From positions 5,132 to 69,131 of the forward strand of contig CANSFI010000002.1 of NCBI GenBank assembly GCA_947646095.1: DNA of 64,000 nucleotides, written 5' to 3'. Below the pieces are notes generated by a model. That model saw only the letters and a program-made list of their open reading frames with translations. It searched no databases and was not told the origin of the DNA. Below are positions 6,206-47,787 of the stretch, in pieces. Made by a program: the position numbers and the translations under genes. This DNA comes from an uncultured Mycoplasmatota bacterium. Its GTDB lineage: Bacteria > Bacillota_I > Bacilli_A > RF39 > UBA660. Position 1 is the stretch's first letter. Each line of letters begins with the position of its first letter.

Positions 6206-6469
6206 TTATTTTATATTTAATATTTTTTCTAGTTCTTCTTTCTTTTTTCCTCTTAAAGGTTTACATTTCAAATAATTATTTTTATCTTTATTTATAGCAT
6301 CTTTCATTCCTTTACAACTACCAAATCCACATACTCCGCAATTTAATCCTGGTAAATGTTTTAGTATTTCATCTTCATTATCTATAGATACTAATATTAT
6401 TCCTAAGATTAAAGAAGTTATTGTTATAATTATTATTCCTATCATTTTATGTTTCCTTTCTTTATACAA
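6206..6469 (-). CDS. short RnfB-like protein: TM anchor plus putative Fe-S cluster domain only (no ferredoxin domains)
   Basis: LPGLNCGVCGFGSCKGMKDAINKDKNNYLKCKP matches the RnfB N-terminal Fe-S domain. It is located at the 3' end of the rnf gene string. Confidence 0.5.
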   Translation of the reverse strand: MYKERKHKMIGIIIITITSLILGIILVSIDNEDEILKHLPGLNCGVCGFGSCKGMKDAINKDKNNYLKCKPLRGKKKEELEKILNIK

Positions 6470-8348
6470 GAACTATACGGAAAGATTTGGTGTTGTTACC
6501 ATTAAAATTTTGAAAAGTAAATATGCCATTGCGATTGTTTTTATCAGCTACTCCATCTCCACCTCGACTAAACCAAGGTGTGTTATTATTAACCATTCCA
6601 GCATAATCATCATACCATGAGCCAAGTACTCCACTATCAGCATAAAATGGTCCCATCTCACCTGTTGCATCACCTAATATTCTCTTACTATATTGAGTAT
6701 AAACTGTAGATATATATATATCTACATACTTATTTTCTGGAAAAGTTGAATCTGTAAATCCACTATTACCATATTTTGTGGTAGCCCCAGTTGTATATCC
6801 CATAATGGCTTCTTCAGCTCCACCACTCATATCAAATATTCCACTTATATTTCCTGTTGTACTTTGGTTATAAATTCCATTTGTTTTACTTCCATAAACA
6901 TTTTTACATGTTCCACTTTTAGTTTCTCCAGATGAATTTCCTCCACATCCTGTCATATACCCTTGATAATTATTTATATAAACTTCTGAATTTTTTCCAT
7001 ATTTACTATGAGATAAATAGGCTACTGCCCCCCATTCTGTATTTTTCATCATATGAATATCACTATTACTTGATAAACCAAATATACTATCAGTACTATT
7101 CATACTTTTTACCATTTTAAAAGCGTTACTTACATTTATTCCTCTCCATGAATAAACGTTTGGTTTTACTATTAATTTAGTACTATTTGGATTTGCTACT
7201 ACGGCTTCTGATGTTTTAGTAGCATCTTTATAACCTGATTCAAATTTTCCTACCCATATTCCATTTAGTTCATCATTTCCAAAAGTGAATGCTGGGTGTG
7301 TTAAATATTCTCCATTATTTGTTCCATTTGATTTAGGGGTATTTTTATTTTCAAATACTATATCGATACTATGAACTTTAGTTGTATCTTTACTTGTATT
7401 TTTATCTAATACTTCTACATACCATAATTTATATTTATATCTTGGTATCCATGTTAAATAAACTAAAATATCATCTTCATTTATTTCTAATGCTGCATCT
7501 GTATTTTCATACTTGCTTCTACTTTCATCTGTTACTAGTACTGCATTTGCCCATACTTTATTATTATAATCATACCACTTACTTGATAAATCAGCTTTTT
7601 TTACAGTACCATCATTTTCTATTGTTACTGGTATCATTCCCGTTTTTAATACTGGATCTACTCCATTTAAACTTTCATCTTTATAGATATTTGTTTCTAC
7701 TGCTACTGTAATTGTTTTTTTTATGTTAGTTTTATCTACTGTTACTGTAATAGTTGTTATTCCCTCACTAATCCCTGTTATATTTCCTTCACTATCTACT
7801 TTAGCTATAAAGTTATCACTGGATTCCCAGTTTAATTTTTTATTGGTTGCATCACTAGGTAAGATATTTACATCTATTTTTTTACTTCCTTTTACTTTTA
7901 AAGTTATCTCTGTTTCACTTAATATAATATCCTCTACCGATATTGGTATAATACAATTTTTAGTATTTTCTATTAATGTTATATCATTATCATTAATTCC
8001 TTTAGTTACACAATATTTTCCATTTGTTATAGCTAATTCTATTTTTCCTTCTTTTGTAATAATCATATTACCACTTTTAGGTCTACTTCCTTTTATATCT
8101 AGTCCTTTAGCATCTGGAAATGTAAATGTTATTTCTGTCATTTCAACTGAGTCTAATAATTTATTAGCATAATAAACCTCCCCAGCTTTTATTATTCCAT
8201 ATGCTGAATCCTTAAATGCTGATTTATTTGCTCTTTCTATTATGTTCATTATTATTGGTATTGTAATTAAAGCTATTATGACTAATATTATTATGACTGC
8301 TAGAAGTTCTATAAGCGTAAATCCTTTTTTATTTTTCATTTCAATCAT
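6462..8348 (-). CDS. type IV pilin-like protein (prepilin N-terminus) fused to Big_2/Ig-like domains (pilin family member P1)
   Basis: N-terminus MIEMKNKKGFTLIELLAVIIIL... has the canonical G|FTLIE prepilin cleavage/methylation motif. The middle region has a Big_2-like repeat (ITLKVKGSKKIDVNILPSDATNKKLNWESSD...ITVTV). Confidence 0.75.
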   Translation of the reverse strand: MIEMKNKKGFTLIELLAVIIILVIIALITIPIIMNIIERANKSAFKDSAYGIIKAGEVYYANKLLDSVEMTEITFTFPDAKGLDIKGSRPKSGNMIITKEGKIELAITNGKYCVTKGINDNDITLIENTKNCIIPISVEDIILSETEITLKVKGSKKIDVNILPSDATNKKLNWESSDNFIAKVDSEGNITGISEGITTITVTVDKTNIKKTITVAVETNIYKDESLNGVDPVLKTGMIPVTIENDGTVKKADLSSKWYDYNNKVWANAVLVTDESRSKYENTDAALEINEDDILVYLTWIPRYKYKLWYVEVLDKNTSKDTTKVHSIDIVFENKNTPKSNGTNNGEYLTHPAFTFGNDELNGIWVGKFESGYKDATKTSEAVVANPNSTKLIVKPNVYSWRGINVSNAFKMVKSMNSTDSIFGLSSNSDIHMMKNTEWGAVAYLSHSKYGKNSEVYINNYQGYMTGCGGNSSGETKSGTCKNVYGSKTNGIYNQSTTGNISGIFDMSGGAEEAIMGYTTGATTKYGNSGFTDSTFPENKYVDIYISTVYTQYSKRILGDATGEMGPFYADSGVLGSWYDDYAGMVNNNTPWFSRGGDGVADKNNRNGIFTFQNFNGNNTKSFRIVLV

Positions 8349-8405
8349 CCCATTCTATTTTTATTATACCTATATTTTAATCTATATTAAATTGACAACA
8401 TTAAT

Positions 8406-8522
8406 TTAGTTTTGTCTATCTTTTTTACATCCATTACAATTAATACAACTTTTACACTTATTTTTACTATATAAAATACAAGTTAAAATAAATAAAACTA
8501 GAAGTATAATAAAAGCAATCAT
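8406..8522 (-). CDS. tiny membrane peptide with CxxCxxCxxC cluster, translationally coupled to rnfA
   Basis: Hand translation gives MIAFIILLVLFILTCILYSKNKCKSCINCNGCKKDRQN (38 aa). Its ATG overlaps the rnfA TGA stop (ATGA). It is below the ORF-track size cutoff. Confidence 0.35.
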   Translation of the reverse strand: MIAFIILLVLFILTCILYSKNKCKSCINCNGCKKDRQN

Positions 8523-9088
8523 AAAGGCATGTACCTTTTAAATAAAAGTGACATAACAAAAGCAGTTATTAAAGCAATAGGAACTCCTTTAAAGTATTTT
8601 GGAATATTAGATATTTCTAACCTTTCTCTAATACTTGCGAATATATATAAAACTAATGTAAAACCTAAAGAAGAAGATATACTATATATAAGAATTTCAA
8701 TAAAATTAAAACTATTATTTATATTCAATAAATTTATACCTAATACTGCACAATTTGTAGTTATAAGAGGTAAATATAAACCTAAATTTTTATGAATTTT
8801 AGGTAAATATTTTTTTAATACAATTTCTATTAATTGAACCATAAAAGCAATAATCAAAATAAACATAATAGTTTTTAAATATGTAGTATTTGTAGGAACT
8901 AAGATAAAATAATAAATTAAATAAATTAAAATACTAGATAAAATAACTACTATACTAACACTTACTCCCATATAAAAGGCATTCTTTTCTTTATTAGAGC
9001 TACCAAAGAAAGGACATAATCCTAAAAATTTACTCAAAATAATATTTTCTGTAAGTAAACCTGTAATAAATAAATTAATTAAATTCAT
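8519..9088 (-). CDS. rnfA: Rnf electron transport complex subunit A
   Basis: Polytopic membrane protein with GLCPFFG motif, RnfA/NqrE family. Confidence 0.85.
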   Translation of the reverse strand: MNLINLFITGLLTENIILSKFLGLCPFFGSSNKEKNAFYMGVSVSIVVILSSILIYLIYYFILVPTNTTYLKTIMFILIIAFMVQLIEIVLKKYLPKIHKNLGLYLPLITTNCAVLGINLLNINNSFNFIEILIYSISSSLGFTLVLYIFASIRERLEISNIPKYFKGVPIALITAFVMSLLFKRYMPL

Positions 9089-9714
9089 ACTCTTCTCCTA
9101 TCTTTTAAATAATTAAAAAGTGGTATTAATAATCCTAAAGTTAAGAAAGCTCCTGCTGGTTCTACTAAAATAGATATTGGTAAAATATTAGTAGTTGGTA
9201 TTATTCTATAAATAGCTCTATATCTAGTAATAGAACTAATAGAATCCATTAGTGTAATTATACCAGTACCAAGAACTTCTCTAAACAAAGCTATTAAAGT
9301 TATAGCTAAAGTAAATCCTAGTCCTATTCCTAATACATCTTTCAAACTATAACTCATTTTTTCTTTTGAATAAACTGTTAATATTCTGCCTAAAATAGTA
9401 CAGTTAACAACAATTAAAGGTAAATATATTCCAAATACTTTATATAGGTTAGATATATAATTTTTTAATATTATTTCTATAGCTGTAACAATAGTTCCAA
9501 CTATTAATATATAAACAGGTATTTTAACACTTTCTGGTACTATTTTCTTAATAATAGTTACAACAAATGATGAAAGAATTAAAACTATTAAAACACATAT
9601 TCCCATTAAATAAGCGTTTTCTACTTTAGTTGTAACTGCTAAAGCAGGACATAATCCTAAAAGTAAAACAAAAGTAGGATTTTCTTTTATTATTCCATTT
9701 ATTATTGTTTTCAT
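9085..9714 (-). CDS. rnfE: Rnf complex subunit E
   Basis: LLLGLCPALAVTT motif, RnfE/NqrD family. It overlaps rnfA by 4 nt. Confidence 0.85.
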   Translation of the reverse strand: MKTIINGIIKENPTFVLLLGLCPALAVTTKVENAYLMGICVLIVLILSSFVVTIIKKIVPESVKIPVYILIVGTIVTAIEIILKNYISNLYKVFGIYLPLIVVNCTILGRILTVYSKEKMSYSLKDVLGIGLGFTLAITLIALFREVLGTGIITLMDSISSITRYRAIYRIIPTTNILPISILVEPAGAFLTLGLLIPLFNYLKDRRRV

Positions 9715-9798
9715 ATTTCACCTACACTTTTCATAATAAAATAAAGTATACTAGAACAGATTAAAGCTGTTAAAGTTAAAACTATTACACCTTTTATT

Positions 9799-11196
9799 TT
9801 ATCTTTCATAATTATCACCATAATCTTTTAAAGTATTTATAAACATCTTCTTTAAAGATGTAGAAGTTATTGTAACACCACTAATAGTATCAACATTATC
9901 AAGATTATTTTGTTCAGATATTAATTTATTTATATAATTTGTATCTATTATCTTTTCATAAAAACTATCACTTTGTTCTAATATTTCTACAGATTTTATT
10001 TTAGAATTATTAATAGTTATTTTTGCTTTTATGGTACTAGAATATCCTTTTTCAGTTACAATATAAATAATATTAGAACCTATTTTTTCTTTACTTTCAA
10101 TACTATAATTAGGATCTTTTTCATCAATTTTATATTTAGAAGTAATTATAAAAGGTAAAACTACAATTAAACTTGCTAAAACTATAAATGGTAGAATTAT
10201 TTTTTTTTGTCTATTTGAGCATAAATTATCAATAACAGGCACTAGCATATTCATAGTTAAAATACTTGTAAGAACACCTTCTGGGTATGGAGTTAAATAT
10301 CTAAATATAACTGTAAGTATTCCAAGTGAAATACCATATATTATTTGACCAGCTATAGTAGTTGGACTAGTAACAGGATCAGTTGCCATAAAAACTGCTC
10401 CAAAAAATAACCCACCACTTAATATTTGAAATAAAGGATACCAAATTCCTAAATCATTAAATATTCCAACTAAATAAGTTAATATAAATACTGTACTTAT
10501 ATAAAAAACTGGTATTTTCCATTTAATTGTTTTAGTAATTGTTAAATAAATAAAAGCTATTAAACAAAGTAAAGCACTTGTTTCTCCGATAGCCCCTGGT
10601 ATAGTTCCAATAAAGAAATTTAAAAGGTTTCCATATGGTTTAACTAATATATCATATGTACCTATACTATCTATAGATGCATTAGAAAGTGGTGTAGAAT
10701 GACTTATAGTATCTATTTCATAACTATTCAAATATCCTCCATGACTACTAATTACGCTAGCATATACTGATATAATGAAAAGTCTTCCTATCAAAGCAGG
10801 ATTAAAAATATTATTACCAAATCCACCAAATAACATTTTACCTAATATACTAGCAACTAAAGAACCTAGTATAACTAAAGATACTGGTGTATTAATTGGT
10901 AAGATAAGTCCTAAAAACAAACCTGGAATAAAACTATAAGAATCAAATAAGTATTTTTTTAAATCCTTTTCTTTTAAGAATAATTTTACATATAATAATT
11001 CAAAAAGTGTTGTTGATAAGGTTGATACTAATATTATTATAATTGGTCTAAATAGAATAATTATATTTCTATTACTAATATAGGGTATAATGCCATTTTT
11101 ATAAAAACTAAATAGAATAATTGGAGTTAAAGCAATAATTAAATGTAACATTATTTTGCTAGTTTTATTTTTACTTTTTATATATGGTCCTTTCAT
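9799..11196 (-). CDS. rnfDG: fused Rnf subunits D and G (RnfD membrane domain plus C-terminal FMN-binding RnfG domain)
   Basis: The N-terminal ~320 aa are polytopic RnfD-like. The C-terminal ~140 aa have a TM anchor and the FMN-binding motif DTISGVTITSTS. Confidence 0.75.
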   Translation of the reverse strand: MKGPYIKSKNKTSKIMLHLIIALTPIILFSFYKNGIIPYISNRNIIILFRPIIIILVSTLSTTLFELLYVKLFLKEKDLKKYLFDSYSFIPGLFLGLILPINTPVSLVILGSLVASILGKMLFGGFGNNIFNPALIGRLFIISVYASVISSHGGYLNSYEIDTISHSTPLSNASIDSIGTYDILVKPYGNLLNFFIGTIPGAIGETSALLCLIAFIYLTITKTIKWKIPVFYISTVFILTYLVGIFNDLGIWYPLFQILSGGLFFGAVFMATDPVTSPTTIAGQIIYGISLGILTVIFRYLTPYPEGVLTSILTMNMLVPVIDNLCSNRQKKIILPFIVLASLIVVLPFIITSKYKIDEKDPNYSIESKEKIGSNIIYIVTEKGYSSTIKAKITINNSKIKSVEILEQSDSFYEKIIDTNYINKLISEQNNLDNVDTISGVTITSTSLKKMFINTLKDYGDNYER

Positions 11197-12452
11197 TATT
11201 TACCTACTTTCTCTTTTGCTTTTCTTACAGATTCTCTTACATTTATTTTAGCTGGACAAATATAAGAACACAAACCACAATTAATACATTTGTTGGCATT
11301 TAATTGTTTTAGTTTTTCTATATTATTTATATTATCTTTAATTAAAACAGGACATATTTTGGCTGGACATACACTTACACATTTACCACATCTTAAACAA
11401 TTTTTAACTTCTTCTTTTTTTATATTTTTTAAAATTAAGACACAATTTAATTCAGGAGTAACGATTAAATCTTCTACATTTTCTCCCATCATAGGACCAC
11501 CTGCTATAAGAATTTTATTATCACAACCTATATAATTAATTAATTCTTTTACTGGTGTACCTATTTTAACTAAAATATTTTTAGAATTTTTTAATCCATT
11601 TCCAGAAAATGTAACTATTCTTTCAGTTAAAGGTTTATTTAATTTTAAAGCTTGGTATATTGCATATATAGTTGAAATATTATTTACAATTATATACTTT
11701 TCAATAGGTAATTTATCATAAGTAATATTAGTTAATTCTTTAATTAAATTTCTCTCCCAACCCATAGGATATAAACTTGGAACTAATACTACTTTAATCT
11801 TTAAATATGTACCAATATATTTATTGATTATATCTAGTAAAGATTTAGAACTAACAGCTATTATAGATTCATTTATATTATTTATTTCCATTATAGCATC
11901 TATTACTTCTAATATTTCTTGGCATTTATCTTTAATAATAAAATAATCAGCTGTAATATATGGTTCACATTCAACCGCATTTACAATTAATGTATTAATA
12001 TTTTCGTTATTATATTTAATATAAGTTGGAAATCCTGATCCACCTAAACCAACTATTCCATTATTTTTTAATATTTCAATAAATTCTTGTTTAGTTATTT
12101 CATTTATTTTATCTTGTTTTTTCAAATTGTTTACATTTGTTTCTTTAAAATCATTTTCAATAACTATACATTTTACTTTATTACCATTAAATATTGTGTG
12201 GTCTTCAAAATCAATAACTTTTCCACTTACAGTAGATAATATTAATTTTTTAACGTTATCTTTTACCTTACCTATAATACTACCTTTACAAACATAATCA
12301 CCTTTATTTACTAAAACTGTAGCATTATAAGTAGGAATATAAACTCTTTCTGGTTTATTATAAATATCTAATGGTGTTTTAGTTGATACTGATTTATATC
12401 TAGGTATTTTTAAACCTTTCATCTTTTCACCTACCCTAATATAATTATACAT
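11196..12452 (-). CDS. rnfC: Rnf complex subunit C
   Basis: Two 4Fe-4S motifs (CLRCGKCVSVCP, CINCGLCSYICP). GGSGFP NADH-binding-like motif. Likely true start is MKGLKIP at 12422. Confidence 0.85.
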   Translation of the reverse strand: MYNYIRVGEKMKGLKIPRYKSVSTKTPLDIYNKPERVYIPTYNATVLVNKGDYVCKGSIIGKVKDNVKKLILSTVSGKVIDFEDHTIFNGNKVKCIVIENDFKETNVNNLKKQDKINEITKQEFIEILKNNGIVGLGGSGFPTYIKYNNENINTLIVNAVECEPYITADYFIIKDKCQEILEVIDAIMEINNINESIIAVSSKSLLDIINKYIGTYLKIKVVLVPSLYPMGWERNLIKELTNITYDKLPIEKYIIVNNISTIYAIYQALKLNKPLTERIVTFSGNGLKNSKNILVKIGTPVKELINYIGCDNKILIAGGPMMGENVEDLIVTPELNCVLILKNIKKEEVKNCLRCGKCVSVCPAKICPVLIKDNINNIEKLKQLNANKCINCGLCSYICPAKINVRESVRKAKEKVGK

Positions 12453-12592: not shown

Positions 12593-15466
12593 ATGAAGAA
12601 GATTAAAACAATTAAAAGGATTTCAAAATATTTATTATTTATAATAGTGATGTTTATAAGTATAAATGGAGTTAAAGCTGATTATCAAAGCGACCATAAT
12701 AGTACAATTTCCACATCTGGTGGAGTAAACTGTAATAGCTATTGTTGGAATTTCCCAGATAAGCAATCATATGTTTCTGGAATTAGAGTAAGTGTTGTTA
12801 ATTCTGATGGAGATATGGTAAGTAAACGAACAATGGATTATTTAAATAGTGGTAACCATGTTTATAGGTTTAATAACAATAGAGGATACTCAAGATGTTA
12901 TGACAATGCTCGTAACAAAATAACTTATTTAAAATATAATGCACCAGCTAAATGGGGAAATCATAATGGTGAAGAAATAGCAAAATATCTAGATATGCCA
13001 GATATCTTTCGTAATAGAAATTCGGCACAAATTATAAAAGATGCTATAAATAATGGGTTAGATAAAGTATTCTTTGATGACATTGGATATACACTACCTA
13101 ACAGTGTAGAAGAAAGAAATGAACATTATATAATTATTGAACCTGTAACTGCTATTATTTCTGGTGATAGACAATATTATGGAACATATTATGAACTAGC
13201 TTCATCTCTACCTACTGGTAGTGGGATTTCTACATCTTCTGTATTGTTAGAATCATTACCAATTTCTATGTATATATCTGGAAATAAAAGAATAAAAGGA
13301 AGTGCTAGATTTGAAAATGGTACTTATTTTAAAGGATTATTAAGAGAAGCTAGATGGCCAGAGATGCGAAATCCTTATTACACAAGTCAATTAGGTAAAC
13401 AATATTGTGATCAACATTTTGGTTGGGGGGTAGCTATTTATTGGTTAGGTGTTGGTAGTGATGATGATCCTCCAGATTTAGATATAACCCCTCCTATTCC
13501 ACCTAAATGTGATTTTAATAATTCTAGTCACTTTAGAAGTACAACAAGTGGCCCAAATAATGAAGATTGCTGTATATATGTTTTAGATAATTTAAAAGAT
13601 TATAATATAACTAAAGAAGATTTATTTAATCGACATAGAAGGTGTCGTCAAAACATCATTAACACTTGTAAATTTGGATATGATACAAGTCAACCTTCAT
13701 GTAATACAAGTGCTTACGGTTATATAAAAGATATTGACGATTGGGTATGTATTAAATCTAGTCCATTATCAAATAACTCAACTTTTAAAAATTATTTTCT
13801 AAAATACGGGAATTTTGATAGTGCTTGTTCTGTATACTGTCGTGATGAAATCAAATATTTATATCCAGGTAGTGGAATGATTGCTTTAGCTGGTAACTAC
13901 TTTACAATTGCTAATAAAAGTAATTCATATAGTTATTATATAGATGATGTAACAAAAACAACTAAAGTTAAAGCCGCAACTCTTGGACCTATAACTATTA
14001 CTGTCAAAAGAGAATGCACTATTGATACAGATCCAGATACTGTTACTAGTTCTGATTTAAATCAATGTCAAGTTAAATTAAATGATCAATTAGATCAATT
14101 AAAAGCTCCTGCTATTGAATTTGCTTATGAATCTGATTACTATAATAATCCTACTGAAAATTTAAGAGTTTCTAAAACTACTACAACTAATTCAAATGAT
14201 AATAATATAAAATCTAGAACTATAAAATATGAATATTCATTACCTACTACTACTTATTACTCTGTATCTAAAGGTAATGGAGCATCTACCAAATATAAAC
14301 CTTCTTCAAATAATTCAAATTATATTACTATTGGATATCATTTACCTATTCATTTTACTCAGGCTACTGGTAGAACAGAATATCAAATAGGTATTAAAAA
14401 TTTCAATAATCAAAACTTTAATAATGTATTTATAAATGGTAATAAAATGCCAACTACTATTAAATCAAGTATTGAAAGTTATATTCAAAACTTAAGAAAA
14501 AGTGGGAAGGCTAATGCTAGTAATATTAATGGAAGATGGTATTTAGATAAAACTTTTGTAAAATTATTAGAAAAAGCTAATTATGATAAAGTAAATTTTA
14601 TGCAGATGAGTTGTGCTAATACTAGTAGTTATACTTGTAATTATGATGATAATGGTATATATTGTTTAGATAAAAATAGTAATTCTAATAGTGAACAAAC
14701 TTATAAAAATCTAGATAGTTGTATTAGAACAGAAGTTCAAAAATTAAAAACTAACAATGTAAGTTATAAATCTGATTTAACTTATACTTGTAACTTTACT
14801 GTAAGAAACACTATAGGTTCTACACCTGATCCAGATCCATCAGGATATAAATGTAAATATATAAATGGAAAATATTATGGAATTAATGGAAATATTGTAT
14901 CAAAAGATACATATACTAGTGAGTGTGGTTCTTCACCTATAAATCCTGATAATCCATCTTGTATTCCAGGTGATCCAGATTGTCCAGGTAATAATGATGA
15001 AGATGATAATTGTGTTGGTCCTAGTTGTAATCCTGGTGGTATAGATCCAGAAGATGGTCCAGGAGGAATCAATGTTATATTTAGACCAATATCATTAGAT
15101 AATCCATTTCCAAGTATCGATGGTGATGGAAGAAAAACGGGAAGTAATTGGTGTTATTGGTATGACTGTGCTAATACAAACGATGTAGTTAAAAAAGCTA
15201 TTACTAATAATAGAAATGTTACAACTGAAAAAGTTTATAAAGATTTAGGCCCACTTTATAAAATAACTTTAACTCCTGCTACTATTAAAGAAATAAGAGC
15301 TTATAATAAAAAAACTACCTATGATGACTTTAATTTAAAATGCAATAATGGTACTAAATGTCTTAGTGACTTTATTCGTAAAAACTTTATAAGTAAATTT
15401 ACTGGCTGTGGTATTAAAGGTCATGAAGGTACTACTAAATGTCAAGACTTTGATAGATGGGGATAA
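12593..15466 (+). CDS. large secreted Cys-rich protein of unknown family (paralog A, 957 aa)
   Basis: Sec-type signal peptide (MKKIKTIKRISKYLLFIIVMFISINGVKA|D). Many Cys residues. C-terminal D/P/G-rich segment (NPFPSIDGDGRKTG). No recognisable catalytic motifs. Confidence 0.6.
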   Translation: MKKIKTIKRISKYLLFIIVMFISINGVKADYQSDHNSTISTSGGVNCNSYCWNFPDKQSYVSGIRVSVVNSDGDMVSKRTMDYLNSGNHVYRFNNNRGYSRCYDNARNKITYLKYNAPAKWGNHNGEEIAKYLDMPDIFRNRNSAQIIKDAINNGLDKVFFDDIGYTLPNSVEERNEHYIIIEPVTAIISGDRQYYGTYYELASSLPTGSGISTSSVLLESLPISMYISGNKRIKGSARFENGTYFKGLLREARWPEMRNPYYTSQLGKQYCDQHFGWGVAIYWLGVGSDDDPPDLDITPPIPPKCDFNNSSHFRSTTSGPNNEDCCIYVLDNLKDYNITKEDLFNRHRRCRQNIINTCKFGYDTSQPSCNTSAYGYIKDIDDWVCIKSSPLSNNSTFKNYFLKYGNFDSACSVYCRDEIKYLYPGSGMIALAGNYFTIANKSNSYSYYIDDVTKTTKVKAATLGPITITVKRECTIDTDPDTVTSSDLNQCQVKLNDQLDQLKAPAIEFAYESDYYNNPTENLRVSKTTTTNSNDNNIKSRTIKYEYSLPTTTYYSVSKGNGASTKYKPSSNNSNYITIGYHLPIHFTQATGRTEYQIGIKNFNNQNFNNVFINGNKMPTTIKSSIESYIQNLRKSGKANASNINGRWYLDKTFVKLLEKANYDKVNFMQMSCANTSSYTCNYDDNGIYCLDKNSNSNSEQTYKNLDSCIRTEVQKLKTNNVSYKSDLTYTCNFTVRNTIGSTPDPDPSGYKCKYINGKYYGINGNIVSKDTYTSECGSSPINPDNPSCIPGDPDCPGNNDEDDNCVGPSCNPGGIDPEDGPGGINVIFRPISLDNPFPSIDGDGRKTGSNWCYWYDCANTNDVVKKAITNNRNVTTEKVYKDLGPLYKITLTPATIKEIRAYNKKTTYDDFNLKCNNGTKCLSDFIRKNFISKFTGCGIKGHEGTTKCQDFDRWG

Positions 15467-15471
15467 TATAA

Positions 15472-16373: not shown

Positions 16374-17105
16374 ATGATAAAAAATAAAAGAAAAACTATT
16401 ATAGGGATTATTTTAAGTACTATAGTTATTAGTACAATACTATTTTCTAATCAAATAGCTAAAGTTGACGCTGAAGGACAAGCAGACATAGGTGGTTCTA
16501 CTGCTGGTGGTAGCGGTTGTATAGACCCTAAAAATTGTTGGCCATTCCCAGATGGTGGTACTAATAAGTCAATTAGAGGTATTAGGGTTAGTGTTGTAGA
16601 TAACAATGGAAACATGATCAGTGCTAGATCTATGGATTATTTGAGTGAGGAAAGTCATGTTAGAATAATTAACACAGATAAACGTTATACTAAATGTACA
16701 AACCACACTCGTAATAAAGTATCTTATATAAAACAAAATACATCTTGTAATTGGGCTAATGAGTTAATAACTGTTAAACATGCTTCTTGGCTACCAGACG
16801 TATTTTTCGATAGTTCAGCTAGTAATACAATTAAAAATTATATTTTAAATAACTATAATAATATAAGAGACAATATATTCCAAGATATTGGTTATAATGC
16901 TCCTAGTAAAGAAAAAAGAAAAAATCATTATGTAATTGTTGAACCTGTAACTTATGTTACTTACCTAGGGGACAGATATTATGGAACTTATCATGAATTA
17001 AGTAATAAAATGCCTACTAGTGGAAGACCTGTTTTAAAAAAACATTTACCTTATTCTATGTATATTGTAGGAAATGAAAATATTGGTGGTGATGGTGGTT
17101 TTTAA
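16374..17105 (+). CDS. N-terminal fragment of large secreted Cys-rich protein paralog B (ends at in-frame TAA)
   Basis: Signal peptide plus a domain homologous to residues ~40-270 of paralog A (GIRVSVV.NG.M.S.R.MDYL, HY.I.EPVT). Confidence 0.55.
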   Translation: MIKNKRKTIIGIILSTIVISTILFSNQIAKVDAEGQADIGGSTAGGSGCIDPKNCWPFPDGGTNKSIRGIRVSVVDNNGNMISARSMDYLSEESHVRIINTDKRYTKCTNHTRNKVSYIKQNTSCNWANELITVKHASWLPDVFFDSSASNTIKNYILNNYNNIRDNIFQDIGYNAPSKEKRKNHYVIVEPVTYVTYLGDRYYGTYHELSNKMPTSGRPVLKKHLPYSMYIVGNENIGGDGGF

Positions 17106-17144: not shown

Positions 17145-19136
17145 ATGAAGAATATGACAAACTCATCAGGTGTTACTAATAGTTATGAGGACAAAAGTTA
17201 TGGTTGGGGTTTAGGTATCTATTGGTTGTACGACTTCGATAATCTAAAAGACCCATTTTGTAGTTTAGATACACCTGACCACTTTACTACTTCAACAAGT
17301 GGACCTAATAAAGAAGATTGTTGCCAATATGTTATAGATCATCAAAGTGAATATAATATAACAAAAGCTGAATTATTTAGTAGATACCCTAGATGCCGTG
17401 CATTATTACTTGAAAAAGAATGTAATTTTAACTTAACTACCATTTATCCATCATGTAAAGAAAATGCATATGGAAAAATAAGTGATATTGATAATTGGGA
17501 TTGTATATATGCTAGTGCATATTCAACTGATTCTTCTATCAAAAACTATTTCTTAAAATATGGTTCTATTAATAGTAAATGTTCTGTATATTGCCGAGAT
17601 GAAATAGAATATATTTATCCAGGAAATGGAATGATTACTTTAGCTGGTAATTTCTTTACTATTGCTGGTAATACAAATTCTTATACAATTTATACTGATG
17701 ATGTAACAAAAACAACTAAAGTTAAAGCAGCTACACTCGGACCAGTTAAAACTACTATTAAAAGAGAATGTTCTATACTAGGTGAAAATGATAGTACTTG
17801 TAGTGCTAAATTAGATGAACAATTAAATAACTTAAAGGCACCAGAAATCGAATTTGCCTATGAATCAAAATATTATAATAACCCTGTGGAAAACTTAAGA
17901 GTTAGTAAAACTACCACTTCTACAAATAATAGTAATGGTATTAAATCTAAAACAATAACTTATGAGTATGCTCTACCTAAAAATACTTATCAATATATAT
18001 CTAAAGGTAATGGAGCTTCTTATAAGAAAACTTCAGCTATAGGTAATTATCCATATATTAAAATCGGACCTCACTTACCTATTCATTTTTCAGAAAAAAG
18101 TTCTAATGATTATCAATTAACTATTAAAAAATTTAATATTCCTAATTTTGATTCATTAATATTAAAAGGAAAAACAATGTCTACTACTTTTGTTTCAAGT
18201 ATTGAAAGTTATATTCAAACATTAATAAATAATGGTAGTGCTAATCCTAGACTTATTAATGGAAGATATTATTTAGATCAAACATTTGTAAAATTATTAA
18301 ATAAAAATAATTATACTGTTGATGAGTTCTTGTCAAGGAACTGTGCTAATACAAATACTTATTCTTGTGATAGTGATGGTAATGGTATATATTGCTTAGA
18401 TAAAAACAAAAATACAAACAGTGAACAAACTTATAAAAACTTTAATGCTTGTATTAAAAAAGAAGTTCAAAAAGATACTTCTGATAAAAAAAGCTATAAA
18501 AATGATATGTTATATTCTTGTGAATTCCAAGTAAAAAACACTATAACACCTTCAGAAAATGATCCATATAAATGTAAATATATAGATGGCAAATATTATG
18601 GAAAAAATGGAAATGTAGTATCAAAAAATACATATAATAAAGAATGTAACACACCTGACAAACCTAATAATCCTGATGATTGTGATCCTGAAGTAGAATG
18701 TTGCGATCCAGAATGTCCAAATCCAATTAATCCAAATGGTATTAATGTTATATTTAGACCAATTTCTTTAGATAATCCATTCCCAAGTATTGATGGAGAT
18801 GGTAGAAATACAGGAACTAATTGGTGTTATAATTTCGATTGTAATAATAAAAATGAAATTGTATCAAGAGTTATTACTAATAATCGTGATGTGGAAACTG
18901 AAAAAGTATACAAAGATTTAGATCCACTTTATACTATTACTTTAACACCTGCCACTATTAAAGAAATAAGAAAATATAATAAAAAGAATAATTATGATGA
19001 TTTTAATTTAAAATGTACTGATGGCTATAATTGTCTTAGTAACTTTATTAGAAATGATTTCAAAAAATACTTTAAAGGTTGTGGAATTAAAGGTTTAGAT
19101 AATGGTTTAAATTGTGTTAAATCTGATAAATGGTGA
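17145..19136 (+). CDS. C-terminal portion of paralog B (same frame as 16374..17105, separated by a single TAA)
   Basis: Collinear with paralog A residues ~280-957. Blocks are near-identical at DNA level (e.g. GATGATGTAACAAAAACAACTAAAGTTAAAGC, AATGTTATATTTAGACCAAT). Confidence 0.55.
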   Translation: MKNMTNSSGVTNSYEDKSYGWGLGIYWLYDFDNLKDPFCSLDTPDHFTTSTSGPNKEDCCQYVIDHQSEYNITKAELFSRYPRCRALLLEKECNFNLTTIYPSCKENAYGKISDIDNWDCIYASAYSTDSSIKNYFLKYGSINSKCSVYCRDEIEYIYPGNGMITLAGNFFTIAGNTNSYTIYTDDVTKTTKVKAATLGPVKTTIKRECSILGENDSTCSAKLDEQLNNLKAPEIEFAYESKYYNNPVENLRVSKTTTSTNNSNGIKSKTITYEYALPKNTYQYISKGNGASYKKTSAIGNYPYIKIGPHLPIHFSEKSSNDYQLTIKKFNIPNFDSLILKGKTMSTTFVSSIESYIQTLINNGSANPRLINGRYYLDQTFVKLLNKNNYTVDEFLSRNCANTNTYSCDSDGNGIYCLDKNKNTNSEQTYKNFNACIKKEVQKDTSDKKSYKNDMLYSCEFQVKNTITPSENDPYKCKYIDGKYYGKNGNVVSKNTYNKECNTPDKPNNPDDCDPEVECCDPECPNPINPNGINVIFRPISLDNPFPSIDGDGRNTGTNWCYNFDCNNKNEIVSRVITNNRDVETEKVYKDLDPLYTITLTPATIKEIRKYNKKNNYDDFNLKCTDGYNCLSNFIRNDFKKYFKGCGIKGLDNGLNCVKSDKW

Positions 19137-21575: not shown

Positions 21576-22097
21576 TTATGTGTTTAAATAATAATTATTA
21601 ATTTTTTCATAGCCTAAAGTAGTACTACTTCCATGTCCTGAATATAAAATAATATCGTTAGGATAATCTTTTATCATATCTAAACTATCCATCATATCTA
21701 TATCATTTCCTGTATCTAAATCTGTTCTACCAATACTTTCTTTAAAAATAAAATCACCTACAAACATTATCTTTTCTTTTTCAAAATAAAAAGTAATAGA
21801 ATCACTAGTATGTCCTATAGTTTTTATTAATCTAAATTTAAAATTTTTTATTTCAATATTATTATTACTGCTATAATCAAATATAGGAACTCTATAATGT
21901 TTTTTTAATTCTTCTAATGCCCCAATATGATCAAAATGATAATGAGTTATTAAAATACCAACTAAATTTAAATTACCAATTTCTTTTTTTATTATTTCAA
22001 AATCACTAGCAGGATCTACAATTAAACAATTTTTATTTTTTTCTATTAAATAACAATTAGTTTGAAGTGGACCTAAAATTAATGTTTTTATTTTCAT
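21576..22097 (-). CDS. MBL-fold metallo-hydrolase
   Basis: HYHFDHIG motif. Confidence 0.7.
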   Translation of the reverse strand: MKIKTLILGPLQTNCYLIEKNKNCLIVDPASDFEIIKKEIGNLNLVGILITHYHFDHIGALEELKKHYRVPIFDYSSNNNIEIKNFKFRLIKTIGHTSDSITFYFEKEKIMFVGDFIFKESIGRTDLDTGNDIDMMDSLDMIKDYPNDIILYSGHGSSTTLGYEKINNYYLNT

Positions 22098-22387
22098 TTA
22101 TGATTCCACTGTGTAAATTTTTTAAAAGATTCTAATTTACTTAACTTATTTTCTTGAATATCTTTATTAATTTTTGGTTCTTCTATTTTAGATCGATTCA
22201 TTAAGTGCATATCTTCTTTTACTTGTTCGATTGTTTTTCTTCCTAATTTATTAGGATCATTTGGTATTGGTCTAACTAGTCTAGTTGGTTCATTATTTAT
22301 AAATTTGTTTTTATTAAAAAATAAATCACTCATGAGATACCTCCAATATTTCTTTAACTGGTCCATATGTTTTTCTATAACCATCAA
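22094..22387 (-). CDS. hypothetical small protein (start probably at an internal Met)
   Basis: ORF only. It overlaps the rnhB 3' end if the longest start is used. Confidence 0.3.
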   Translation of the reverse strand: MMVIEKHMDQLKKYWRYLMSDLFFNKNKFINNEPTRLVRPIPNDPNKLGRKTIEQVKEDMHLMNRSKIEEPKINKDIQENKLSKLESFKKFTQWNHK

Positions 22388-29639: not shown

Positions 29640-30866
29640 TTATATTTCTTCTATTTCCATAAAATTAGTATGCTTTACCTCTTTAAATGGATATCCTCCT
29701 GTAATAATAATTTTATCCCCTTTATTTACATCAATTAAATCAAGTGTTAATTTTCTAGCATGATCTATTATTTTATCAAATGCTTTTATATCATCTATTA
29801 AAATTGGACAAACTCCAAAATGTAACATTAGTGACTTAGCTGTATCAACATTAGGAGTTGTTGCAATAATAGGACACTTTGGTCTAAATCTACTTATTTT
29901 CCTACCTGTGTAACCACTTATAGTAGGTGTTATAATGGCTTTACAGTTTAATCTTGTTGCTGTTTCAGCAACATTATAAGCTAATATTCCTGTTACTTCT
30001 TGATCTTCTGTTTTTACTGCTTTATTTAATAAATCTAAATAGTCAATATCAAGTTCAGCTGCTTTGATAATTTTTTCCATTGTTTCTAATGTTTCAACAG
30101 GATATTTACCTATTGTTGTTTCTCCTGATAACATTACTGCATCTGCTCCATCTAGTACAGCATTAGCAACATCACTTACCTCTGCTCTTGTTGGTCTTAA
30201 AACATTTTCCATTGATGATAATAATTCAGTTGCGACTATACTAACTTTTCCTGATAAATGACATTTGTTTATAATAGCCTTTTGAATTCCTGGAACTCTT
30301 TCTAATGGAAGTTCAACTCCTAAATCTCCACGGGCTATCATTATTCCTTCACTTACTCTAATAATTTCATCGATATCATCTACTGCTCTTTCGTTTTCTA
30401 TTTTAGCAATTATACCAATATGATCATTACCATAATTTATTAATATATCATTTACTTCTAAAATATTTTCATAAGATTCTACAAAAGAAAGTGCTAAAAA
30501 ATCAACATTATTTTTACAAGCAAAATTGATATCTTTTCTATCTTTTTCTGATAAAAAAGGAAGATCTATATGAATTTTTGGAACATTTAATCCTTTATTA
30601 TCTTTTATAATTCCATCGTTTAATACTTGACATAATAAATAATTTGTACCTTTATCTAATACTTTTAATTCGATTAAACCATCATCTAGTTTTATTATTG
30701 TATCATATTTAACATCCCATAATAGATTTGGATAACTAACTGAAAATTTAGTATTATCACCCATTATTTCTTCCATATAAACTCTTATTTTTGAGTCTTT
30801 TTTTAGCATTGCTTGACCACCTATAAATTTACCAACTGTAATTTCTGGTCCTTTAGTATCTAACAT
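29640..30866 (-). CDS. pyk: pyruvate kinase, major C-terminal part (gene frameshifted near its 5' end)
   Basis: MLDTKGPEI...GDLGVE...MLSGETTIGKYP. The same reading frame extends up to about 30896 (KINSELNTTIAIMLD). Confidence 0.85.
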   Translation of the reverse strand: MLDTKGPEITVGKFIGGQAMLKKDSKIRVYMEEIMGDNTKFSVSYPNLLWDVKYDTIIKLDDGLIELKVLDKGTNYLLCQVLNDGIIKDNKGLNVPKIHIDLPFLSEKDRKDINFACKNNVDFLALSFVESYENILEVNDILINYGNDHIGIIAKIENERAVDDIDEIIRVSEGIMIARGDLGVELPLERVPGIQKAIINKCHLSGKVSIVATELLSSMENVLRPTRAEVSDVANAVLDGADAVMLSGETTIGKYPVETLETMEKIIKAAELDIDYLDLLNKAVKTEDQEVTGILAYNVAETATRLNCKAIITPTISGYTGRKISRFRPKCPIIATTPNVDTAKSLMLHFGVCPILIDDIKAFDKIIDHARKLTLDLIDVNKGDKIIITGGYPFKEVKHTNFMEIEEI

Positions 30867-30883
30867 GATAGCAATAGTGGTAT

Positions 30884-31054
30884 TTAATTCTGAATTAATT
30901 TTTTTATTTTACTTATTATATCTTCACAAAATTTATAATCACAATGTTTTAAATTAATACGAACTACATCTATACCACTTTGAACTAATCTTTTTAATGT
31001 TTGTATATCATTGCTAGAAGGTCCAATAGTGGCTATTATTTTAGTCTTATTCAT
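30884..31054 (-). CDS. pyk: pyruvate kinase N-terminal 56-aa fragment (separated from the rest by a frameshift in an A7/T7 run)
   Basis: MNKTKIIATIGPSSNDIQTLKRLVQSGIDVVRINLKHCDYKFCEDIISKIKKLIQN then stop. One extra A in the run at 30899-30905 would fuse it in frame to the main ORF. Confidence 0.7.
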   Translation of the reverse strand: MNKTKIIATIGPSSNDIQTLKRLVQSGIDVVRINLKHCDYKFCEDIISKIKKLIQN

Positions 31055-32149: not shown

Positions 32150-32422
32150 TTATTTTTTATTTACATCTAAAACCATAGCATATGTTAAATATATTCTCCA
32201 TATTTTAAGTTCATTTGGACTTTTTTTATCAATTATAGAAAAAGTTTCTAAAAATTTTTTAAAGCCAATTATTTCTTTTTTTATTTCATAACTTTTTAAG
32301 GTATAGATAATTGGATTTTTACCACCCATAAAATAAGAAAACAAACTAAAATAAATAAGGATAACCGTTATAACTATGTAAGAAATTGAAACAAATCTAG
32401 CTGCTGATGATATAAATACCAT
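32150..32422 (-). CDS. hypothetical small membrane protein
   Basis: ORF only. Confidence 0.25.
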   Translation of the reverse strand: MVFISSAARFVSISYIVITVILIYFSLFSYFMGGKNPIIYTLKSYEIKKEIIGFKKFLETFSIIDKKSPNELKIWRIYLTYAMVLDVNKK

Positions 32423-32680
32423 AAAAAACTATAAAACCAATCATAAAAAGTGGACACATAATCATTATTAAATTTGTTAATAAACTACTATTTCTACTTA
32501 TTTTAAGTTCTACGGAAATAAAGTAATTATTCTTCTTCTAACTCTTGTTCTACTATTCTAGACCATGAATATATACTAAAATTTGATTTGTCACTACTTT
32601 TTATACAATCACATATATGCTTTTCATCTTCATACAATTTGTCATAATCATTTATATTTTATAAGTGTCATATATTTGTT

Positions 32681-33136
32681 CTAATTCAATACAACTCTAT
32701 TTATTAAATTTAATATAGTATCAAATATATCCTTTTTACCTTCTATTTTTTTATTGTGTAACATTGAAATCATAGCTACTGGATAATTGCCATGTATTTT
32801 TCTTGTAAGCAACTGTCTTGTTTTTAAATAATAAGATACTTTAAAGAATAAATATATAAAAAATATTTGAATTAGTAATACTAATAATAACAGTAAAATA
32901 ATATCATCATAATATTTAGCAAATATACTAAATAAACCATCTTTATACACTAAAAGAAATATTCCTAATAAAGATAAAGGAAACCATATATGACTTCTTA
33001 ATCTTGTTTTCTTTAAGAATTTTGCAATTAAAATAATTATTATATATAATATTAAAACGCCTATTATATTACTTAATCCTAATATTCTTGTTGTATTTTC
33101 TATACTTTCTAGTACATTTTTTATTTCATTTAACAT
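32681..33136 (-). CDS. hypothetical membrane protein
   Basis: ORF with 3-4 hydrophobic segments. Confidence 0.35.
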   Translation of the reverse strand: MLNEIKNVLESIENTTRILGLSNIIGVLILYIIIILIAKFLKKTRLRSHIWFPLSLLGIFLLVYKDGLFSIFAKYYDDIILLLLLVLLIQIFFIYLFFKVSYYLKTRQLLTRKIHGNYPVAMISMLHNKKIEGKKDIFDTILNLINRVVLN

Positions 33137-41648: not shown

Positions 41649-41876
41649 TTAAACAAAAAAAACACACCCATAAGGACGTGATTTACGTGGTACCACCTTA
41701 ATTTATAAACTATTGTTTACCTTAAATATTTAACGCATATATACGGATTATTCTACTAATTTCAAACAATCAACTCCCAAGCTACCTTCAATTATTTTTC
41801 TTTAAGAAAAGTTTTCAGTCGATGACTTTTCCTCCCTAATAAATACTAAATAATTTACTCCTCTTGTTCTAAGTTT
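41649..41876 (-). promoter_or_regulatory. T-box leader of valS
   Basis: Minus strand has AGAGGAG, candidate Val specifier (GTCA), F-box variant GCGTTA, T-box TAAGGTGGTACCACGT, then TTTTTTTT. Confidence 0.55.
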
Positions 41877-41882
41877 TTTATT

Positions 41883-41911
41883 ATTATAATTAAAATAATT
41901 ATAAAAGTCAA
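41883..41911 (-). promoter_or_regulatory. sigma-A promoter of the valS leader
   Basis: Minus strand reads TTGACT, 17 nt spacer, TATAAT. Confidence 0.45.
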
Positions 41912-42128
41912 TTGTTTTTATAAATTAATACCCAGACACATTAAAATTTAAAGAATAAACTATTATTAGGTGATTTTCATGTGTAACAATAATAATAGAT
42001 GGTGGTTTAACAGAGGTAAATGGTTATTTTGTTTATTTGTTTTTTCTATTATATTTTTTTATCAAATTATTTTTACCTTTTTTATTTTAACTAGATTTAA
42101 TATATTTTTATGTTTTGTTTTTTGGTTA

Positions 42129-43025: not shown

Positions 43026-43752
43026 TTGGAATAATTAATTTATCACCTATTTTTATTTCTTTTAAATCATTATAAAGTTCTAATTGTTCTTTAGAAATAC
43101 TATATTTAACCATAATATTTTCTAAACTGTCACCTTCTCTTACAATACAAATTCTATATGATGCATAAACTTCCTCACTTGTAACATTATCAAATAAAGA
43201 TTTAACAGTTTCTTCTTCAATACATCTTTTTGTTTCTTCTTTTTCTTCACTATTTTCCACTTTTATTTCCATTTCCTCCTTTTCTATTTTATTTTCCTTT
43301 ATTTCAGTCTTGATTTCATTATGTGTTATTTCTGCTTTTTCATTTCTACTTTCTTCTATAGTTTCTGTTTCTTCTAAGGTTTGTTCTATTTCTTCTATTT
43401 TCCTTTCCTCTTTTAATATTAATGGTTGTTCTTCTAGTTTATCTATACTAACTTCTATGTTAACTGATAAAATTTTACTATTGATTATTTCATAATAAAA
43501 ATCATTAATATCTATTATTGCTTTATCTAATATATATTTTTCATCCATATTTATATCAAAAGGAATATTATATATAAATGGTTCTGTATTAGTGCTATCA
43601 TCGTTCATTAAATAATCACCACTAATAATAAATTCTCCAGTTATTATTTTATCTCCTTCATAATGTAGTGTATGTTCTAAAGAAATACTTGTTATTTCTG
43701 ATAAATTACTTTTAAAAATAATTTCTTTTTTAAACGGTACTATTTTTTTCAT
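43012..43752 (-). CDS. LysM-domain sporulation protein, SpoVID/SipL-like
   Basis: C-terminal LysM (YRICIVREGDSLENIMVKYSISKEQLELYNDLKEIKIGDKLIIP). Acidic E-rich middle. Located next to CotS-like and other sporulation genes. Confidence 0.45.
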   Translation of the reverse strand: MKKIVPFKKEIIFKSNLSEITSISLEHTLHYEGDKIITGEFIISGDYLMNDDSTNTEPFIYNIPFDINMDEKYILDKAIIDINDFYYEIINSKILSVNIEVSIDKLEEQPLILKEERKIEEIEQTLEETETIEESRNEKAEITHNEIKTEIKENKIEKEEMEIKVENSEEKEETKRCIEEETVKSLFDNVTSEEVYASYRICIVREGDSLENIMVKYSISKEQLELYNDLKEIKIGDKLIIPSVKS

Positions 43753-43808
43753 AAATATTTCCTCCTATCTATTAAAATATATTAAAAAAAAGATAATTTA
43801 TGATCATA

Positions 43809-46133: not shown

Positions 46134-46263
46134 GTTTTCACCTCCTAATGAAATTGATTTATATTATAGTACAAAATAAATTAAATGTCTATGAATTTTA
46201 CTAGAAATTTTTGACAAAAAATAAGGAAGCTTTTAATTCCTTATTTTCATATTTTATTATCAA

Positions 46264-47787
46264 CTATTTTTTTACTTTTATTACTGGTCTTATATAGTTA
46301 TTTGTATAACCACCATTAGTGTATATAGAGTCACTACTAAAACATTTATCGGTAGATACAGTCATAAAGATGTTACTATGTCCTGTAGTTGATGTCCAAT
46401 AATATGAGTTAGATAAATTTGTAGTTAAATATGATGGGCAGCTACCATTATAAGCAGTACATCCTAATTTTTGAGCTTCTGCACCTGATAGGATTCGTGC
46501 TTTGATATCAGTTACTTTTATAGGTTGATAATTGATAGAAGTAGCATTCCAAGCATTTACTTTATCATCTTCTAACGTATAGTCAAAGCTTTCTATATTA
46601 GTCCAATCATTTGTTCTTTCCTTTAATTTCTTTAATATTGTAAGTGGACCTTTTTCTACATTTCCATTGTTTCCCCAATTTGTTCCTCCTGCGGCTTCAT
46701 AGTCTTCTTGGATTATAGAAGCTACCTTTTCACCTAAATTTCTATCCATTATTAATGTAAGGTAATTACCATCATCATTAATTACATAAAAATTATAACT
46801 TGTGGTGTCATTTACTTTAACATTTACTAAAGTTCCATTGGAACAAGTACCTGTTTTTATACAACTATTTGCTGATGTTAATATAGGCTCTTTTACTGTA
46901 ACATTGATTTCTTTTTTTATCTTTGTATTAGAACTTGATGTTACTATTACTTTAGTTGTACCAGTATTTATGGCAGTTATTACTCCATTATTTACTGTAG
47001 CTATACTTTCATCGTTACTTTTCCAAATTAATTCTTTATCCTTAGCGTCATCTGGTTTTGGTGTGGCTGTTACTATTTTAGTTTCTCCTATATTCAATGT
47101 TATATTTATATTATCGACTTCTATAGATGTTACTGATTGATTTACTGTAACATTTACTTCTTTTTTTATATTACTTCCATCAAGGGTTTCTACTATTACT
47201 TTTACTGTTCCTTTTCCTACACCTATTAATTTTCCATTTTCTACTTTCACTATTTTTTCATCTAAACTTGTTATTTTTAACTCTTTATTAGTAGCACTAC
47301 TTGGTTCTATATTTACTTTTAATGTATATTCTTCTTCTGTATTTATTTGAATATTATTTTCTTCTATTTTTAAATCTTTTATTTCTATTGGAATTATACA
47401 ATTTTTTACATTATTGCTTATTTTTACATCATCTTCATTTAATCCTTTTGTAGCACAATACTTTCCATTTGTTATAGCAAGTTCTATTTTTCCTTTTTTA
47501 TTTATTTTCATACTTCCACCAGTTGGTTTGGTTCCTTTTATATCTAAACCATCTGCTTCTGGAAATGAAAAAGATATTTCTTCAATAACCACATTTGGTT
47601 CTAATAATTTATTGGTATAATAAAGTTCTGCTGCTTTTATTACTCCATATGCTGAATCTTTAAATGCACTTCTATTTGCTTTTTCTATTATGTTCATTAT
47701 TACTGGTATTGTTATCAAAGCAACGATTGATAATATTATAATTACAGCAAGTAATTCTATTAATGTAAATCCTTTATTCTTTTTCAT
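46264..47787 (-). CDS. type IV pilin-like protein fused to Big_2 domains (family member P4, 507 aa)
   Basis: MKKNKGFTLIELLAVIIILSIVALITIPVIMNI... Two Big_2-like repeats. Its 5' 180 nt are ~80% identical at DNA level to P1. Confidence 0.75.
   Translation of the reverse strand: MKKNKGFTLIELLAVIIILSIVALITIPVIMNIIEKANRSAFKDSAYGVIKAAELYYTNKLLEPNVVIEEISFSFPEADGLDIKGTKPTGGSMKINKKGKIELAITNGKYCATKGLNEDDVKISNNVKNCIIPIEIKDLKIEENNIQINTEEEYTLKVNIEPSSATNKELKITSLDEKIVKVENGKLIGVGKGTVKVIVETLDGSNIKKEVNVTVNQSVTSIEVDNINITLNIGETKIVTATPKPDDAKDKELIWKSNDESIATVNNGVITAINTGTTKVIVTSSSNTKIKKEINVTVKEPILTSANSCIKTGTCSNGTLVNVKVNDTTSYNFYVINDDGNYLTLIMDRNLGEKVASIIQEDYEAAGGTNWGNNGNVEKGPLTILKKLKERTNDWTNIESFDYTLEDDKVNAWNATSINYQPIKVTDIKARILSGAEAQKLGCTAYNGSCPSYLTTNLSNSYYWTSTTGHSNIFMTVSTDKCFSSDSIYTNGGYTNNYIRPVIKVKK

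Follow-up and report, generated by a model that had tools for sequence, protein, structure and literature searches.

In Streptococcus sanguinis, two modular type IV pilins have been described, PilB, in which the pilin is joined to a vWA domain, and PilC, in which it is joined to a concanavalin-A-like lectin (Raynaud et al. 2021, PMC8179133). A survey of diversity-generating retroelements (DGRs) lists GspG-type pilin domains among their targets, if "scarcely represented" (PMC11661182), and the tip adhesins of the type V pili of Bacteroides are diversified by DGRs (bioRxiv 10.1101/2024.11.15.621889). Here we analyze a window, namely a 64-kb stretch of DNA (64,000 nt) on contig CANSFI010000002.1 of assembly GCA_947646095.1, which holds four genes of the type IV prepilin kind, P1, P2, P3 and P4, all on the minus strand. 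We propose, with a probability of about 0.7, that the four are members of the type IV pilin family, with P3 a plain pilin, P1 and P4 modular pilins whose lectin-fold heads are displayed by machinery encoded elsewhere, and P2 a dead copy.

A six-frame scan of the window for the prepilin motif [GC]F[TA]LIELLAV recovered exactly four sites and no others, and together with the open reading frames (ORFs) it bears out the four genes of the initial annotation, P1 (6462..8348), P2 (31155..~31722), P3 (38400..38816) and P4 (46264..47787). The string KG/FTLIELLAV can be read directly in P1, P3 and P4, and the same three proteins score 29.5-36 bits against the N_methyl model (PF07963; Pfam cut-off 21.2 bits) and 27-32 bits against TIGR02532 (NCBIfam cut-off 16.3). 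Each of the three has a complete class III signal peptide, i.e. a short basic leader ending in Gly, a hydrophobic residue at +1, Glu at +5 and about 20 hydrophobic residues, which P2 does not. At the DNA level the 5' ends form repeat families detected by a repeat finder, with identities of 79-81% for P1/P4, 73% for P1/P2 and 64-67% for P1/P3. The resemblance of P1 and P4, first placed at ~80% over the initial ~180 nt, is real but reaches further, amounting to 77% identity over ~400 nt, that is, the entire pilin module. The ~135-residue module is 71% identical between the P1 and P4 proteins and 55% between those of P1 and P3; in P1 and P4 it comprises a class III signal peptide, an alpha-1 helix and a four-stranded sheet closed by two cysteines. 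AlphaFold2 models built from homologue alignments are confident for both the pilin modules and the C-terminal heads, and the hallmark of the pilin fold, an antiparallel beta-sheet against which a long N-terminal helix is packed, is seen in these models and corroborated by matches to solved pilins. P1 and P4 thus qualify as modular pilins as Raynaud et al. define them, having a pilin module plus at least one module that is not specific to the type IV pilus, and P3 is non-modular.

P3 encodes a stand-alone protein of 138 aa which consists of the pilin module only, scores 36 bits against N_methyl and matches solved pilins over residues 1-96. Its family is an abundant one of pilins of 128-150 aa, with an orthologous slot upstream of lepA in relatives, and P3 is a classical small pilin that probably serves as a filament subunit. 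The gene is preceded by a promoter-like TTGACT-18-TATACT with an upstream TG (38995-38966, minus strand) and followed by a terminator-like hairpin (38379-38356, minus strand). The terminator exceeds shuffled controls (1 observed vs 0.1 expected), while the number of promoter-like sites in this AT-rich DNA does not. Both P3 and P4 had been credited with a promoter and terminator of their own; for P3 a promoter-like site and a terminator are present, but for P4 we found only the terminator of the upstream efp.

P1 encodes 628 aa, or 625 aa if one follows the gene callers in other assemblies, which place the ATG at 8339. The pilin module (aa 1-135; 8348-7944) is followed by a Big_2 domain (aa 138-215; 7937-7704) and then by a large head (aa ~220-628; 7691-6465), and the AlphaFold2 model has a predicted local distance difference test score (pLDDT) above 90 except in the Big_2 region. 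When the head was searched with Foldseek, TaqVP, the variable protein of a DGR, was retrieved with an E-value of 8e-8; a sequence search of solved structures with the heads gave a single marginal match, again to this structure (5vf4, E 0.49). Accordingly, the C-terminal ~250 aa that had been described as devoid of recognizable domains belong instead to an FGE-type C-type-lectin domain of ~400 aa, as identified by AlphaFold2 and Foldseek. This head has more than 8,000 relatives in the databases. From genomes of gut Bacilli we recovered 104 ORFs bearing it in 78 loci, with more than 12 copies in some single genomes. The pilin module is present in only 16 ORFs of those loci, and most of the 104 begin with other hydrophobic N-termini, among which no NCBIfam match to a SipW/TasA-type signal was obtained. 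The occurrence of the P1-type head behind other hydrophobic N-termini fits an exported binding domain.

P4, a protein of 507 aa, repeats this plan with different parts, as its pilin module (aa 1-135; 47787-47383) is followed by two Big_2 domains (aa ~137-298; 47379-46894) and an Lcl_C/DUF1566-like head (aa ~300-507; 46890-46267), with a mean pLDDT of 92 for the model. The Big_2 domains, one in P1 and two in P4 by Pfam and NCBIfam, agree with the initial annotation. Among 74 members of the P4 family, 9 match Lcl_C/DUF1566 (PF07603; best E 1.9e-5) and 8 match DUF6273, and the source annotation of one homologue names it a DUF1566 protein; a Pfam scan gave no PF07603 match for P4 or P2 themselves. 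Intimin and InvE are present among the structural matches of P4. Proteins of the P4 type, of ~350 aa, are abundant.

The fourth member, P2, is a genuine pseudogene and a dead remnant, as its description as a frameshifted copy had anticipated. The motif CFALIELLAV is not in the frame of the gene's ATG AAA, no in-frame start exists, and a cysteine occupies position -1 in place of the obligatory glycine. The disrupted gene lacks the pilin beta-domain and retains half a head, namely the last ~95 aa of an Lcl_C-like domain, which align to the last ~95 columns of the P4 family with an hhalign probability of 99.8% (E 9e-28). As the identical sequence is carried by five independent assemblies from different samples, the defect is real, and an assembly error is ruled out for the frameshift. 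An alternative code with TGA read as Trp is likewise excluded for P2 and for the split pyk next to it, because both show changes of frame and no in-frame TGA. Two strains (L157/L159; such L-numbers label the compared loci from relatives or same-species assemblies) lack P2 altogether and have the neighboring DUF2207 gene intact at 291 aa. With respect to context, the placement of P1 within the rnf operon, of P3 between valS and lepA and of P4 between lon and efp holds, but P2 does not follow pyk: it lies upstream of it, between pyk and the remnants of the DUF2207 gene.

The neighbors of P2 show disruptions of their own. The DUF2207 membrane-protein gene just upstream (32150-33136, minus strand) is broken into at least two ORFs, of 151 and 90 aa. 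In the pyk gene (29640-31054, minus strand) the reading frame breaks at a run of adenines, A7, near 30906 (~30900-30906), where a frameshift divides the gene; the run is A8 in all seven other same-species assemblies, where an intact pyruvate kinase of 471 aa is encoded. As the A7 run is unique to the window, it is either an assembly error or a private mutation.

Comparison with relatives does not support the recent expansion that had been suggested for the family. In a close relative (L162/L163; 27% GC), whose LepA is 93%, Lon 82% and Pyk 82% identical to those of the window, the slot directly upstream of lepA is occupied by three pilin genes, one of the P4 type and two of the P3 type, and another gene of the P4 type is found upstream of lon; tmk and pyk directly adjoin each other there, P2 being absent. 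In a more distant relative (L164 9422-11616), four short P3-type pilins stand in tandem, identical over their first ~55 residues and divergent in their beta-domains. This pattern suggests multiple or alternative major pilins in which the N-terminus is kept uniform by gene conversion. In a distant relative (L083) with Rnf proteins 44-57% identical to those of the window, a P1-type gene directly follows rnfA, and here (10001-12052; protein P0109) an RnfB-like iron-sulfur (FeS) domain and the P1-type prepilin form one reading frame, with no stop, ATG, GTG or TTG between the parts at the junction (...EILNRQ/GFTLVELL...). Such a topology, with a cytoplasmic FeS domain followed by the pilin helix, would allow the parts to be separated by prepilin peptidase. 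Other close homologues occupy different sites: mraZ has a P1 homologue of 72% identity upstream of it, and a homologue of P4 is flanked by PHP and isochorismatase genes; the pilin family as a whole numbers thousands of proteins in metagenome-assembled genomes of gut Bacilli. Given the shared slots and the scattered homologues, we conclude that dispersal is the rule in this lineage, with several chromosomal slots conserved, and that the families are large and old. If anything, the species of the window has lost copies, for it has fewer than its relatives and one of these is decaying.

The absence of pilus machinery from the 64 kb, which the initial annotation had noted, is borne out: Pfam searches of about 50 ORFs found no T2SSE, T2SSF, Peptidase_A24 or PilM in the window, and tblastn of the window with the T2SSE, T2SSF and A24 proteins of relatives gave no match. 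The ~10 kb beyond the low-coordinate end likewise show no machinery, and encode only gatCAB, asnS/aspS, HU and cca. In relatives a T2SSF and Peptidase_A24 gene pair is present (L040, L044, L052, L053 and L083), with a T2SSE ATPase in L083; these genes are surrounded by housekeeping genes, one such position being that after dnaG-sigA-trmK. No pilin genes stand beside the T2SSF-Peptidase_A24 pairs in relatives, and in L083 the T2SSE gene is followed, where the locus ends, by one pilin-like ORF. In relatives, too, the pilin genes are thus set apart from the machinery and do not form part of an ordinary operon for a pilus or for competence, and the lineage does encode prepilin peptidases. Neither of the two findings named at the outset as refuting the earlier view is therefore seen in relatives. 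With a pilin module, an Ig-like spacer and a lectin-fold head in each of the larger proteins, the earlier view of pilin-anchored display or adhesin proteins outside a conventional pilus operon is upheld.

From the domains, folds, homologies and synteny computed here, taken with the state of P2 and the machinery of relatives, we infer a likely course of events, from processing through incorporation into a filament to the binding of ligands. Cleavage after the glycine of the leader would be carried out by a prepilin peptidase whose gene lies outside the window, and the alpha-1 helix would keep the protein membrane-bound. A machine of the PilB/PilC type, with genes likewise located elsewhere, would then insert P1 and P4 into a type IV filament or a pseudopilus of short length, the tip being the likeliest place in view of their bulk. 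The lectin-like head would thereby be presented to glycans or other ligands of gut surfaces, with the Big_2 spacers holding it off the pilin module. The genes themselves occupy old, conserved chromosomal slots outside any pilus operon, and the machinery genes of the lineage are likewise scattered.

Several points weigh against this proposal. Neither a prepilin peptidase nor an assembly ATPase nor a platform protein is encoded in the window or in the ~10 kb past one of its ends, to which the search in this genome was confined. The assignment of the P4 head leans on weak Pfam matches in 9 of the 74 relatives, with P4 itself unmatched, and Foldseek with the P4 model is dominated by matches to Ig domains, which are uninformative for the head. 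To regard P3 as the major pilin is a guess from its size, signals and position.

The main rival holds that the class III signal peptide serves simply as a device for export and membrane anchoring and that P1 and P4 never polymerize. Class III signal peptides are known from sugar-binding proteins of archaea, and large sets of solo prepilin-type proteins from Planctomycetes and Verrucomicrobia, and the solo, scattered genes with no machinery nearby would suit such a role. So would the bulk of the heads (~400 and ~200 aa, plus the Ig spacers) and the export of the P1-type head in relatives behind non-pilin hydrophobic N-termini, which makes the N-terminus look interchangeable. Nevertheless, P1 and P4 have kept a complete globular pilin module, 71% identical between the two and 55% identical to that of P3, which would be superfluous for a bare anchor. 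Moreover, relatives have arrays of short P3-type pilins in a slot shared with P4-type genes, as well as genes for PilC-like, PilB-like and peptidase components. We accordingly consider a mere anchor unlikely.

A further alternative arises from the similarity of the P1 head to the targets of DGRs. In gut Bacilli, three loci (L004 1889-4345, L023 11121-13604 and L077 11051-13523) contain complete DGR cassettes which target homologues of the P1 head, in each, the variable region is followed by a template repeat and by a reverse transcriptase that bears an IGNYTSQ...YMDD signature; the mismatches between template and variable region fall at template adenines in 16/16, 12/12 and 15/17 cases, respectively. 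The P1 head is 44-47% identical to these three variable proteins, and its segment PWFSRGG...FRIVLV (6465..6578, minus strand) corresponds to their variable regions in an alignment, where they share the pattern PWFxRGG...FRxVL. P1 hence has the layout of a DGR target, a C-type-lectin-fold domain with the equivalent of the variable region at its C-terminal end. Among six assemblies including the window, three of the five positions with single-nucleotide polymorphisms in P1 lie within this 117-nt segment (binomial p = 0.002, or 0.02 with the affected codon counted once), and codon 594, at a position variable in all three proven targets, is tri-allelic (AGT/AGG/ATG, for Ser, Arg and Met). It could be supposed from this that a DGR elsewhere in the genome rewrites the last ~115 nt of P1 and makes it a hypervariable adhesin borne on the pilus. 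Against this, the repeat finder detected no template repeat for the 3' ends of P1, P2 or P4 in the window, and no homologue of the DGR reverse transcriptase was found in the window or in same-species or close-relative loci. A degenerate scan of viral contigs for template repeats yielded poly-A artefacts only; two anchored scans across contigs from metagenomes came back empty but are uninformative, since they also missed their positive control, the known JGI copy of P1. At each Asn-rich position of the segment the six assemblies agree, and the changes observed are not directed at adenines, so that it is simpler to suppose selection acting on a residue of the binding site. In addition, with the FeS gene beginning 20 nt past the P1 stop, the homing elements that usually lie downstream would have little space. 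P1 shows no sign of active DGR diversification, and we regard its being a working DGR target as highly improbable. The weakest proposal, that the genes are displaced pseudopilins of a ComG-type DNA-uptake pilus, could appeal to weak N-terminal matches to the ComGC, ComGD, ComGE and ComGF models and to a Firmicute host, but the ComG equivalog scores of 25-30 bits against cut-offs of 49-80 reflect the shared helix only, comGA and comGB are absent from the window and from beside the relatives' homologues, no ComG operon context is seen in relatives, and the modules are lectin-like rather than DNA-binding; we consider it very improbable.

The type IV pilin interpretation can also be extended, with much less assurance, to a broader evolutionary scenario. 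It might be that in this lineage of gut Bacilli a lectin head of the hypervariable type, on the scaffold of FGE/DGR variable proteins, is a mobile cassette with interchangeable N-terminal routes to the surface, among them the type IV pilus. P1 would then be a pilus-tip adhesin built firmly into the rnf operon, as it is even in a distant relative, and would either remain an occasional or remote DGR target or experience strong selection for diversity at the residues of that same binding site. We view this extension as speculative and rather improbable.

The rnf operon in which P1 is embedded (6206..12452, minus strand) was delineated by Pfam on the ORFs of the window and from the called genes of same-species contigs. 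It includes rnfC (11196-12452), rnfD/G (9799-11196), rnfE (9085-9714) and rnfA (8519-9088), all minus strand, and downstream of P1 a short RnfB-like FeS gene (ATG ~6445 to 6206, minus strand) which has a ribosome-binding site and an ATG ~20 nt past the P1 stop. The order rnfA, P1 and FeS gene is kept in every same-species contig. Divergent to the operon and upstream of it lie a 957-aa ORF (12593-15466, plus strand) and a paralogous pair of 243 aa (16374-17105, plus strand) and 663 aa (17145-19136, plus strand), which are without Pfam matches and share 71-87% DNA identity in blocks with the former; in same-species contigs a gene for a RelB-like antitoxin separates the two large paralogous copies.

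The window, which belongs to a contig of 80.6 kb, has a GC content of ~25%, and the presence of genes for SpoIVA, SpoIIP and Gpr, along with one for a SigK-like sigma factor, identifies the host as a spore-forming Firmicute. The same species is represented in GCA_949738025.1 and in several gut metagenomes, with 99.8% identity across the P1 locus among its assemblies. The gene for the SigK-like sigma factor (5444-6199, minus strand) is intact in the window and in L151, and in three other same-species assemblies (L150 12198-21878, L152 and L153) an insertion exceeding 9 kb splits it after region 2. The inserted element resembles the skin element in its cargo, as a large serine recombinase (Resolvase/Recombinase/Zn_ribbon) is encoded there along with helix-turn-helix genes and a Viral_Rep-like one. 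At the other end of the window (63312-64000, plus strand), tandem repeats of 9, 27 and 36 nt encode Gly-X-Y collagen-like triplets, and the ORF concerned is probably a BclA-like spore-surface protein that continues past the window edge. Two tandem tRNA-Asn(GTT) genes of 92% identity are found at 2037-2189 (minus strand), and a gene of the metallo-beta-lactamase fold (21576-22387, minus strand) appears as two ORFs of 173 and 97 aa, which may reflect a frameshift.

Our findings add two undescribed combinations of modules to the modular type IV pilins, a known class, and imply no new mechanism. They come from a little-known lineage of uncultured gut Firmicutes with small genomes, in which proteins of the P1 and P4 types are plausible colonization adhesins. 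In this lineage the lectin scaffold used by DGRs is mounted on type IV pilins, in parallel with the DGR-diversified heads of the type V pili of Bacteroides. The significance would be greater if P1-type pilins are, or recently were, pilus adhesins diversified by DGRs, which we mention as a possibility. For annotation, a concrete architecture can now replace labels such as "type II secretion system protein" or "hypothetical", and P2 can be flagged as a pseudogene.

The closest parallel is offered by PilB and PilC of S. sanguinis, which like P1 and P4 combine a small but complete pilin module and a class III signal peptide with a bulky ligand-binding module. There, as here, a plain small pilin is found in the same monoderm organism, and the predicted role is adhesion by means of a head that the filament presents. 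Unlike those of S. sanguinis, however, the heads of P1 and P4 are C-type-lectin folds, of the FGE/DGR type and, probably, the Lcl_C/DUF1566 type, that follow Big_2 spacers, and their genes are solo and dispersed, with no pil operon. Neither pilin with Big_2 and an FGE-type head nor pilin with Big_2 and an Lcl_C-like head is among the 15 most frequent architectures named in the main text of PMC8179133. The FGE-type C-type-lectin fold of the P1 head is that of the DGR variable proteins TaqVP (5vf4), TvpA (2y3c) and Mtd (1yu0), from which P1 differs in having no template repeat or reverse transcriptase nearby and no clear hypervariation within the species; conversely, P1 has a type IV pilin N-terminus that the three proven targets of relatives lack. 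The type V pili of Bacteroides resemble the present system in placing a lectin-fold head on a pilus subunit in a gut bacterium and in having numerous, modular pilin genes, but they constitute a system unrelated to type IV pili, with lipoprotein-type processing, strand exchange and active diversification. For P4, the C-terminal domain of Legionella Lcl (PF07603; 8q4e) is comparable insofar as members of the P4 family match PF07603, while P4 itself stays below every Pfam threshold for the head. The succession of Ig-like repeats and a terminal lectin-fold domain in P4 recalls the design of the intimins and invasins. What sets P4 apart from all of these is its anchor, a type IV pilin module in place of the collagen stalk of Lcl or the outer-membrane barrel of intimin and invasin.

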